This document shows, in pieces, positions 24,997 through 27,912 of a stretch of 64,000 nt of DNA; position 1 is the stretch's first letter, and every line of letters begins with the position of its first letter. Origin of the DNA: Heterodontus francisci (taxonomy: Eukaryota). The notes below the pieces were generated by a model, which saw only the letters and a program-made list of their open reading frames with translations, ran no database searches and was not told the DNA's origin. The position numbers and the translations under genes were made by a program. Location: NCBI RefSeq assembly GCF_036365525.1, contig NC_090404.1:18111134-18175133 (forward strand). The letters run 5' to 3'.

Positions 24997-27912
24997 TCAT
25001 TCTCCTTTATCCATATACCTATCTAAAAGCCGTTTGAAAGTCCCTAAAGTTTCTGACTCAACAACTTCCCCAGGCAAGGCATTCCATGCCCCGACCACTC
25101 TCTGGGTAAAGAACCTTCCCCTGACATCCCCCTTATATCTCCCACCCTTCACCTTAAATTTATGACCCCTTGTAACGCTTTGCTCCACCCGGGGAAAAAG
25201 TTTCTGACTGTCTACCCTATCTATTCCCCTGATCATCTTATAAACCTCTATCATGTCACCCCTCATCCTTCTCCGTTCTAATGAGAAGAGGCCTAGAATG
25301 TTCAGCCTTTCCTCGTAAGACTTATTCTCCATTCCAGGCAACATCCTGGTAAATCTCCTCTGCACCCTCTCCAAGGCTTCCACATCCTTCCTAAAATGAG
25401 GCGACCAGAACTGCACACAGTACTCCAAATGAGGCCTTACCAAGGTCCTGTACAGCTGCATCATCACCTCACGGCTCTTAAATTCAATCCCTCTGCTAAT
25501 GAACGCTAACACCCCATATGCCTTCTTCACAGCCCTATCCACTTGAGTTGCAACTTTCAACGATCTATGCACATAGACCCCAAGGTCTCTCTGCTCCTCC
25601 ACATGCCCAAGAACCCTACCGTTAACCCAGTATTTTGCATTCGTGTTTGTCCTTCCAAAATGGACGACCTCACACTTTTCAGGGTTAAACTCCATCTGCC
25701 ACTTTTCAGCCCAGCACTGCAACCTATCCAAGTCCCTTTGCAGACGACAATAGCCCTCCTCGGTATCCACAACTCCACCAACCTTTGTATCATCTGCAAA
25801 TTTACTGACCCACCCTTCGACTTCCTCAAACAAGTCGTTAATAAAAATCACAAACAGGAGAGGACCCAGAACTGATCCCTGTGGCACGCCACTGGTAACT
25901 GGGCTCCAGGCTGAGTATTTACCATCTAAGACCACTCTCTGCCTTCTATCAGTTAGCCAATTCTTAATCCAACTGGCCACATTCCCCACTATCCCATGCC
26001 TCCTGACTTTCTCCATAAGTCTACCATGGGGGACCTTATCAAATGCCTTACTAAAATCCATGTACACCACATCCACTGGTTTACCCTCATCCACTTGCTT
26101 GGTCACCTGCTCAAAGAATTCAATCAGGCTTGTGAGGCAAGACCTACCCCTCACAAAACCGTGTTGACTGTCCCGAATCAAGCAGTGTCTTTCCAGATGC
26201 TCAGAAATCCTATCCCTCAGCACCTTTTCCATCAACTTGCCTACCACCGAAGTAAGACTAACTGGCCTGTAATTCCCAGGGTTGTTCCTATTCCCTTTCT
26301 TGAACAGGGGCACAACATTTGCCACCCTCCAATCACCTGGTACCACCCCCGTCAACAGAGAAGATGAAAAGATCATTGCCAGCGGCTCTGCAATTTCATC
26401 CCTTGCTTCCCATAACATCCTTGGATATACCCCGTCAGGCCCGGGAGACTTGTCTATCTTCAAGTTATTCAAAAACCCCAACACATCTTCCCTCCTAACG
26501 AGCACTTCCTCGAGCTTACCAGTCTGTTTCACACCGTCCTCTTCAGTAATACACCCCTTCTCATTCGTAAATACCGAAGAGAAGTACTCATTCAAAACCT
26601 CACTTATCTCTTCCGGCTCAACACACAGTCTCCCGCTATTGTCCTTGACCGGACCTACGGTCCCCCTAGTCATCCTCATATTTCTGACATACGCGTAAAA
26701 GGCCTTGGGGTTTTCTTTTATCCTACCCGCCAAGCATTTTTCATGCCCTCTCTCAGCTCTCCTAATCCCTTTCTTCAGATCCTTCCTGGCCATCTTGTAT
26801 CCCTCCAGAGCTATGCCTGTGCCCTTTTTCCTCAACCTTATATACGCATCCTTCTTCTTCCTAACAAGACTCTCAACCTCTCTTGTCAACCACGGTTCCC
26901 TCACATGACCATCCCTTCCCTGTCTGACAGGGACATGCTTATCAATGGCCCCTACTATCTGCTCCTTGAAAAAGTTCCACATTTCGACCGTGCCCTTCCC
27001 TGCCAGCATATGCTCCCAACTTATGCTCCTCAGTTCCTGCCTGACAGCATCATATCTACCCTTCCCCCAATTGTAAACCTTGCCCTGTTGCACATACCTA
27101 TCCCTCTCCATTACCACAGTGAATGCTACAGAATTGTGATCACTATCTCCAAAGTGCTCGCCCACCAACAGCTCTATCACTTGCCCTGGTTCATTACCTA
27201 GTACCAAATCCAATATTGCCTCCCCTCTGGTCGGGCAGTCTACATACTGAGTCAGAAAAGCTTCCTGGACATACTGCACAAACACTACCCCATCCAAACT
27301 ATTCGATCTAAAGAGTTGCCAATCAATATTTGGGAAGTTGAAATCCCCCATAATTACTACCCTGTGACTTCTGCTCCTTTCCAAAATCTGTTTCCCAATC
27401 TGCTCTTCCACCTCCCTGCTGCTATTGGGGGGCCGATAGAAAACTCCCATCAAGGTGACTGCTCCTTTCCTGTTCCTGACCTCAACCCACAGTGCCTCAG
27501 TCGGCAGATCCTCCTCGAAAATTCTTTCAGCAGTTGTTACACTATTTCTAACTAACAATGCCACCCCCCCACCTCTTTTACCACCATTCCTAATCTTATG
27601 AAAACATCTATAACCAGGTACCTCCAAGAACCATTCCTCCCCCTCACCTATCCACGTTTCAGTGATGGCCACAACATCGTAGTCCCAAGTGCCCATCCAC
27701 GCCTTCAATTCACTCACCTTATTCCTGATGCTTCTTGCGTTGAAGTATACGCACTTTAACCCTTCTCCGTGCCCATCTGTCCTCTGCGACAGTGCTACCT
27801 TCCCCAATACCTCACTACACTCTTTGTCTTTCTGAGTGGACCCACTGGTCCCTGGACTACAAGTCCGGTTCCCATCCCCCTCCCAAACTAGTTTAAACCC
27901 TCCCGAACAGTA
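24997..27912 (-). CDS. CR1 ORF2: APE endonuclease + reverse transcriptase
   Basis: [59 protein letters not shown]. Frame is open from 27912; the first ATG is at 27696. Confidence 0.95.
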   Translation of the reverse strand, partial: YCSGGFKLVWEGDGNRTCSPGTSGSTQKDKECSEVLGKVALSQRTDGHGEGLKCVYFNARSIRNKVSELKAWMGTWDYDVVAITETWIGEGEEWFLEVPGYRCFHKIRNGGKRGGGVALLVRNSVTTAERIFEEDLPTEALWVEVRNRKGAVTLMGVFYRPPNSSREVEEQIGKQILERSRSHRVVIMGDFNFPNIDWQLFRSNSLDGVVFVQYVQEAFLTQYVDCPTRGEAILDLVLGNEPGQVIELLVGEHFGDSDHNSVAFTVVMERDRYVQQGKVYNWGKGRYDAVRQELRSISWEHMLAGKGTVEMWNFFKEQIVGAIDKHVPVRQGRDGHVREPWLTREVESLVRKKKDAYIRLRKKGTGIALEGYKMARKDLKKGIRRAERGHEKCLAGRIKENPKAFYAYVRNMRMTRGTVGPVKDNSGRLCVEPEEISEVLNEYFSSVFTNEKGCITEEDGVKQTGKLEEVLVRREDVLGFLNNLKIDKSPGPDGVYPRMLWEARDEIAEPLAMIFSSSLLTGVVPGDWRVANVVPLFKKGNRNNPGNYRPVSLTSVVGKLMEKVLRDRISEHLERHCLIRDSQHGFVRGRSCLTSLIEFFEQVTKQVDEGKPVDVVYMDFSKAFDKVPHGRLMEKVRRHGIVGNVASWIKNWLTDRRQRVVLDGKYSAWSPVTSGVPQGSVLGPLLFVIFINDLFEEVEGWVSKFADDTKVGGVVDTEEGYCRLQRDLDRLQCWAEKWQMEFNPEKCEVVHFGRTNTNAKYWVNGRVLGHVEEQRDLGVYVHRSLKVATQVDRAVKKAYGVLAFISRGIEFKSREVMMQLYRTLVRPHLEYCVQFWSPHFRKDVEALERVQRRFTRMLPGMENKSYEERLNILGLFSLERRRMRGDMIEVYKMIRGIDRVDSQKLFPRVEQSVTRGHKFKVKGGRYKGDVRGRFFTQRVVGAWNALPGEVVESETLGTFKRLLDRYMDKGE

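Follow-up and report, generated by a model that had tools for sequence, protein, structure and literature searches.

The CR1-type long interspersed nuclear element (LINE) on the minus strand of the window, that is, the whole 64,000-nucleotide stretch of the Heterodontus francisci genome analyzed here (contig NC_090404.1, forward-strand positions 18,111,134 to 18,175,133), likely fuses its two open reading frames, ORF1 and ORF2, by -1 ribosomal frameshifting at the slippery heptamer U-UUA-AAC, as judged from the sequence. An esterase-endonuclease-reverse transcriptase fusion made by programmed -1 frameshifting had been put forward in an original prediction from the letters of this stretch. The heptamer was found to be conserved at synonymous positions, the -1 frame was open into the endonuclease, and no spliced form was seen, whereas the hairpins and the second heptamer of that proposal were not upheld. 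The LINE is intact, with ORF1 running from the ATG at 28808 to the stop at 27888 and the ORF2 frame from 27912 to 24997, and the following features make up its coding region and junction.

27888 to 28808, minus strand: ORF1, 306 amino acids, with a Cys-rich N-terminus, a coiled-coil-like stretch, an SGNH/GDSL esterase (PF13472, E = 1.4e-13) and the C-terminus Gly-Leu-Asn-stop
24997 to 27912, minus strand: ORF2 frame, 971 codons from stop to stop (964 amino acids from the shift site), with an APE endonuclease (PF03372, E = 6e-20) followed by a reverse transcriptase (PF00078, E = 7e-37)
27891 to 27897, minus strand: slippery heptamer U-UUA-AAC, in the phase of ORF1 and directly 5' of its stop
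27894 to 27900, minus strand: second heptamer G-GGU-UUA, not conserved
27888 to 27890, minus strand: ORF1 stop codon, UAG here and UAG or UAA in all 15 lineage representatives
27763 to 27891, minus strand: linker in the -1 frame from the shift site to the endonuclease, open and without ATG

ORF1 ends in GAG GGT TTA AAC TAG, as originally read, with the stop codon at 27890-27888 on the minus strand. The two heptamers at this end are the only X-XXY-YYZ sites in frame 0 of the 309-codon ORF1 frame, and the probability that two codons drawn from ORF1 would form any such site at its end is 0.0013. As a bare string the junction 13-mer is uninformative (1.28 matches expected at 2 mismatches), and what gives it weight is its phase, its position and its conservation. 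The placement of ORF2 in the -1 frame was also borne out; it opens after the TAG at 27915-27913, overlaps ORF1 by 25 nt and stays open for 971 codons, and it has no ATG before 27696, past the endonuclease YFNARS motif. Twelve codons past this first Met comes a Glu aligned to position 43 of the L1 enzyme; we take YFNARS and the aligned Glu residues to be catalytic. Two near-cognate candidates, TTG (27807) and CTG (27792), are in frame upstream of the endonuclease, which also matches L1 endonuclease structures. The junction region (27650-28150) was 100% identical over 501 nt in all 40 scored copies of 860 candidates; the junction is thus not a private mutation of one copy. Tandem slippage at the heptamer would give Leu-Asn and then Leu-Val-Trp, a junction that is missing from the transframe peptides originally listed.

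Conservation of the site was followed in 15 lineage representatives, seven from this genome and eight from metagenome contigs; most of the metagenome lineages are presumably bird-like, going by their motifs. The loci were collected by protein similarity, not by motif, and comprised six further subfamilies of this genome and 37 metagenome loci. Among the latter, 15 fell short of the ORF1 end, five stopped at the contig end, seven belonged to other SGNH genes, which had no endonuclease and no heptamer, and the remaining 10 were of CR1 type and had the site. The sequence UUA-AAC-UA was invariant in the 15 representatives, and the first base of the heptamer was U in 14 of them, the remaining one having G-UUA-AAC. 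The original prediction had made retention of the heptamer at synonymous positions one of its tests, and TTA-AAC was indeed kept in 15/15 across distant CR1s. In the same ORF1s, TTA accounts for 12% of 159 Leu codons and AAC for 42% of 64 Asn codons, and T occupies 23% of third positions. Of the five other conserved Leu columns, four were mixed in codon and one was mostly CTG; the other conserved Asn and Gly columns of the 15 representatives were likewise mostly codon-mixed. ORF1 tails of the 12 unbroken representatives were about 20-77% identical. The ORF1 stop was never UGA, although UGA would yield the same Leu in the -1 frame. The second heptamer, G-GGU-UUA, was kept in four of the 15 lineages and is not supported as a shift site.

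The frame relationship was conserved as well. From the heptamer to the endonuclease the -1 frame was open in 12 of the 14 representatives with the endonuclease in view, the other two being decayed, and the linkers, from 37 to 93 codons, had little sequence in common. A heptamer in phase, an open -1 ORF (12/14) and synonymous conservation are features of canonical -1 frameshifting. In copies of three other subfamilies, the endonuclease was in the -1 frame in 23/30, 8/12 and 11/12, and in motif-picked loci in 24/30. The copies off the -1 frame (7/30, 4/12 and 1/12) were minorities, as expected because of decay after insertion. The plain heptamer was present in 116 of 119 junctions in a pattern-based sample, biased to intact sites, from which seven off-junction matches were excluded. 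Contigs of organisms B, C and D and of a metagenome showed many ORF1 substitutions and none in 27890-27904 or 27848-27881, among the matches listed (40 of 51). Genome contigs held four loci with no endonuclease downstream, and neither relatives nor the motif were found in viral contigs.

The ORF1 proteins of other elements gave a second line of evidence. Among near homologs, 42 of 75 had the true C-terminus xLN (a 43rd is a truncated fragment), and the residue x could always be encoded by a U-ending codon. Of 150 distant representatives, 107 had the catalytic motif, 98 of them with a tail of 20-40 amino acids; 59 of these 98 tails ended in a dipeptide encodable by XXY-YYZ, of which there are 16, against a background of 4.8%. 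Endings among the distant proteins include LN, GN, KN and GF, which the four shiftiest heptamers would encode; a passage of PMC5009743 lists these four heptamers among the most shifty. Residues whose codons end in pyrimidines only and those whose codons end in purines only stood at 17:1 before LN and 0:8 before GN, and the sole exception before LN, ELN, is compatible with G-UUA-AAC. In a 97-row tree from which the tail had been left out, tail class needed at least 21 changes, which are not independent events since some rows are near-copies; a 26-row clade containing the named vertebrate proteins had LN in 24 rows. Three database proteins that run into the -1 frame, through upstream indels or gene models, read G-F-K-L at the junction, and a fourth reads S-F-K-L; the -1 frame of the window reads G-F-K-L there.

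Downstream of the heptamer, two candidate elements were compared.

27871 to 27880, minus strand: G-rich tract GGGGGAUGGG, starting 10 nt past the heptamer, a candidate 3' stimulator
27838 to 27866, minus strand: two 5-bp hairpins, not conserved and unsupported as a stimulator

A G-rich run 6 nt past the heptamer is present as the original prediction described, and in the aligned sequences it is this G-rich tract that forms the conserved 3' element. G was found in 14-15 of the 15 representatives at seven tract positions, with a variable spacer. These G residues occupy Gly wobble positions, although GGG makes up 30% of Gly codons. The two-part motif of heptamer and G tract matched the genome exactly at 22,008 places, among which the letters of the spacer differed freely. 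Its controls gave no match when reversed and 53 matches at spacings 2-4 nt longer, the native spacing and these longer ones being those searched. Alignments to contigs from other subfamilies and other organisms cover the G tract and end at 27867, 5' of the hairpins. By a G4Hunter-type score, the tract was in the top 6% of surrounding sequence in 14/15.

Both 5-bp hairpins exist in the window copy (27866-27854 and 27851-27838), but their fold was no better than that of shuffled sequences (z = 0.21; 114 of 200 shuffles equally good). As stimulators they are disfavored by their distance of about 25 nt past the heptamer, their absence from other lineages and their disruption by common variants. 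Hairpin 1 is disrupted by a G-to-A variant in L172, L210, L223 and contigs of X2 and X4, and hairpin 2 by a variant in organisms B, C and D. No conserved stem-loop or pseudoknot was found 5-9 nt downstream, where two lineages are almost purine-only and where pseudoknots were not folded explicitly. No Rfam family matched the junction.

A partner for the G tract was also sought in the rest of the element, which drew attention to the 5' untranslated region (UTR).

28936 to 28976, minus strand: C-rich tract (28949-28936) preceded by a 10-bp hairpin (28976-28953), in four subfamilies of this genome but not in a fifth

Across the whole element, the best partner of the G tract was this C-rich tract (-30.3 vs -24.3 kcal/mol for the next), and the pairing was reciprocally best in the window. 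For nine copies from three other subfamilies, the rank of the junction was 1, 1, 3, 4, 5, 6, 10, 11 and 26 of about 80. The C-rich tract showed no covariation with the G run and was missing in the fifth subfamily, which keeps the G run. By these comparisons, the long-range duplex would hold for the window subfamily and is not supported as a general mechanism. The hairpin and C-rich tract are near-identical in the four subfamilies (including L031, L102 and L114 kin), whose ORF1 tails are 48-77% alike. A conserved splice donor lies 3' of them, and the hairpin of the window copy contains an ATG-TAG mini-frame.

If frameshifting operates at this site, most ribosomes would terminate at UAG and release the 34-kDa ORF1 protein. 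A minority would pause with UUA in the P site and AAC in the A site, re-pair on UUU and AAA, and continue reading. The product would be an esterase-linker-endonuclease-reverse transcriptase fusion of about 1270 amino acids (306 + 964), or about 145 kDa, produced at a low ratio to the ORF1 protein. More tentatively, the pause might come from the adjacent stop together with the G tract, lying single-stranded where the mRNA enters the ribosome and serving as a protein-binding site or G-quadruplex seed, rather than from a local hairpin or pseudoknot. The stimulator is the least certain part of this scheme, and its candidates are probably the stop codon and the linear G tract.

Several observations weigh against frameshifting or lessen the force of the evidence for it. 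The lineages share ancestry, and the conservation counts are accordingly not independent; eight metagenome stops were placed by the TTAAAC nearest to the predicted ORF1 end; and three of the 15 representatives are broken copies. The fixed 10-nt spacing could be partly inherited. A canonical four-run G-quadruplex motif occurs in 1/15, and the 15 lineages have no shared local stem or pseudoknot (fold z from -1.1 to +1.3). Among the distant ORF1 tails, 39/98 have no such dipeptide, although nine of these 39 carry xKN at that offset and stop later, and a 6-row clade of related ORF1s has no such tail. The GN, KN and GF heptamer classes are presumed from protein alone. A natural full-length in-frame fusion was not found in a weak search, which returned two longer homologs, one an esterase-endonuclease gene model. 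Start codons count on the same side: some Met precedes the endonuclease motif in nine of the 13 readable lineages, the stop of one abundant subfamily overlaps a -1-frame start as UAAUG (10/12 copies; also 14/30 motif-picked loci), and four bird-like lineages have an in-frame AUG 5 nt past the start of the stop.

These start codons bear on termination-reinitiation, in which the ribosome would restart in the -1 frame at or after the ORF1 stop, on AUG or another codon, and make a separate ORF2 protein, with the conserved junction bases as a reinitiation signal. According to a passage of PMC2881922, SART1 and human L1 need ORF1 to be translated for ORF2 to be made, through reinitiation or recruitment, and an open -1 linker is equally compatible with such a restart. 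Nevertheless, we consider it improbable here. Reinitiation leaves unexplained the fixation of the last two sense codons as a shifty heptamer, and equally the switching among LN, GN, KN and GF only, with a matching upstream residue. The codon at the overlap position varies by lineage (GTT, GTG, ATG, GTC, AAT, GAT, GGT or GCT), the SART1-type overlap AUG is absent in the window element and 14/15 representatives, and the UAAUG subfamily itself has UAACG in 2/12 copies. There is no conserved ORF2 start: the first Met is past the motif-I Asn or absent in four of the 13 readable lineages, and in the others it is at codon 1, 2, 14, 20, 26 or 87. In the UAAUG subfamily, reinitiation may act beside frameshifting. 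L114-L125, L206 and their kin combine the slippery heptamer with the SART1-like UAAUG in one subfamily and offer a natural test case for two routes.

It is very unlikely that the motif is kept for a DNA or RNA function (a palindromic protein site or internal promoter) or for a Leu-Asn C-terminus, with ORF2 translated from an internal near-cognate codon. GTTTAAAC is a palindrome, and the TTG at 27807 and CTG at 27792 are available upstream of the endonuclease. Protein constraint cannot fix the choice of TTA and AAC codons, a DNA site gives no reason for the ORF1 phase, for ORF2 in the -1 frame over varied linkers or for the GN/KN/GF variation, and the palindrome is disrupted in lineages with C preceding TTTAAAC. 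An altered RNA, either a spliced subgenomic transcript (5' UTR donor 28878/28877) or a one-base insertion by polymerase slippage in T3A3, is extremely unlikely. The 5' UTR of the window and of other subfamilies does contain a strong CAG|GTAAG donor, and in one of 119 junctions (L185) the heptamer has gained an A that fuses the frames, so that ORF1 and the endonuclease share an open frame of 518 amino acids. Spliced or slipped RNAs would be expected to be copied back in cis and to leave genomic products. The donor was found unspliced in 193 genomic matches, and the exon end was joined to a non-G base in none, a search that acceptor exons starting with G would escape. No joints with splice-type ends were seen in eight contig sets, whose RNA status is mostly guessed and whose contigs drop rare forms. 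The plain heptamer in 116/119 junctions weighs against transcript slippage.

Like retroviral and coronaviral -1 frameshifting, the CR1 junction has an in-phase X_XXY_YYZ site ending a structural ORF and a polymerase ORF in the -1 frame with no dedicated start. Unlike those signals, it belongs to a non-LTR (long terminal repeat) retrotransposon and has no conserved stem-loop or pseudoknot 5-9 nt downstream; instead, the stop directly follows the heptamer and a G-rich tract stands at +10. Because a conserved downstream structure is lacking, we do not class it as a canonical stem or pseudoknot signal. It resembles the protein-stimulated frameshifting of arteriviruses (nsp1beta with poly(C)-binding protein) in that a brief stretch of linear, low-complexity sequence lies at a constant distance past the entry channel. 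The arterivirus motif is C-rich, whereas that of CR1 is G-rich, starts at +10 and is known from sequence alone. A minority of stimulators are linear, start 12-15 nt downstream and are bound by trans-acting factors, according to a passage of PMC5009743.

Among LINEs, SART1 and L1 likewise have bicistronic RNAs, and one CR1 subfamily shares the UAAUG; in contrast to their separate ORF2 protein, for which reinitiation is given in passages of PMC2881922 and PMC5009743, most CR1 lineages have no overlap AUG and all have a shifty heptamer. For Dictyostelium TRE5-A and TRE3-A, a -1 frameshift is stated in a passage of PMC5911963, there without a slippery site or assay. These elements and Drosophila HeT-A, which has no reverse transcriptase, are of other clades than CR1. 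In Paramecium LINEs, +1 frameshifting or reinitiation was suggested (a passage of PMC5405496). The element is like ZfL2-1-type LINEs of the CR1 clade, which have an SGNH esterase ORF1, an APE-reverse transcriptase ORF2 (a passage of PMC3905857) and a short 3' tandem repeat. The word "frameshift" has 0 occurrences in PMC3905857, and passages of PMC3905857, PMC11835228 and PMC13405545 make no link between CR1 and frameshifting. No report of CR1 frameshifting was found in the literature searched; the early chicken and turtle CR1 papers, which lie outside it, may mention the overlap.

The ends of the element and its surroundings complete the description.

28988 to 30193, minus strand: 5.9 copies of a 204-bp monomer, 99% alike, arrayed in tandem at the 5' end of the LINE
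24885 to 24928, minus strand: 3' terminal microsatellite (TTCTATG)n, a tandem repeat

An SGNH esterase ORF1, short tandem repeats at the 3' end and no LTR are CR1-type features, and by this architecture and the motifs we recognize the LINE is assigned to the CR1 clade. Monomeric 5' ends act as promoters in other LINEs, and the 204-bp array is likely the promoter region here. Each monomer contains splice-donor-like GGTAAG/GGTAGG words. No target-site duplication of at least 8 nt was found for the LINE. Its subfamily is young and recently expanding. ORF1 homologs with named hosts came from sharks, rays, a lizard and turtles. P0001, a "Pseudomonas aeruginosa" SGNH hydrolase, is 91% identical to ORF1; its label looks wrong and contamination is likely. 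Ray gene models called hydroxyacid oxidase 2 or ribosomal protein S24 (P0232, P0027) are LINE sequence, and their labels look wrong too. Adjoining the 3' end of the LINE, interrupted reading frames that encode a CCHC knuckle and stretches resembling integrase (22300-24700, plus strand) are what we take to be a decayed LTR retrotransposon, and another CR1-like ORF2, a 3' fragment, lies at 31564-32000 (plus strand).

There is an even chance, in our estimate, that the esterase-ORF1 branch of CR1 in sharks, reptiles, birds and other hosts makes a Gag-Pol-like fusion throughout, swapping among the four shiftiest heptamers and using a new kind of stimulator in vertebrates, a linear G tract at 10 nt. 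This genome has at least 22,000 CR1 junctions, and in chicken no other repeat is as abundant as CR1 (a passage of PMC11835228). The routes to ORF2 that reviews describe for L1 and SART1 are unconventional initiation or reinitiation, from which a frameshift would differ. Quadruplex frameshift stimulators have been anticipated, with natural examples unknown (a passage of PMC5009743), and if it acts as proposed, the G tract would be one candidate for a natural stimulator rich in G. With a frameshift, CR1 ORF2 annotations that begin at the first Met would truncate the endonuclease. The reverse transcriptase would then be joined in a fixed proportion to the ORF1 esterase, a lipid-binding and self-associating protein, much as Pol is joined to Gag.

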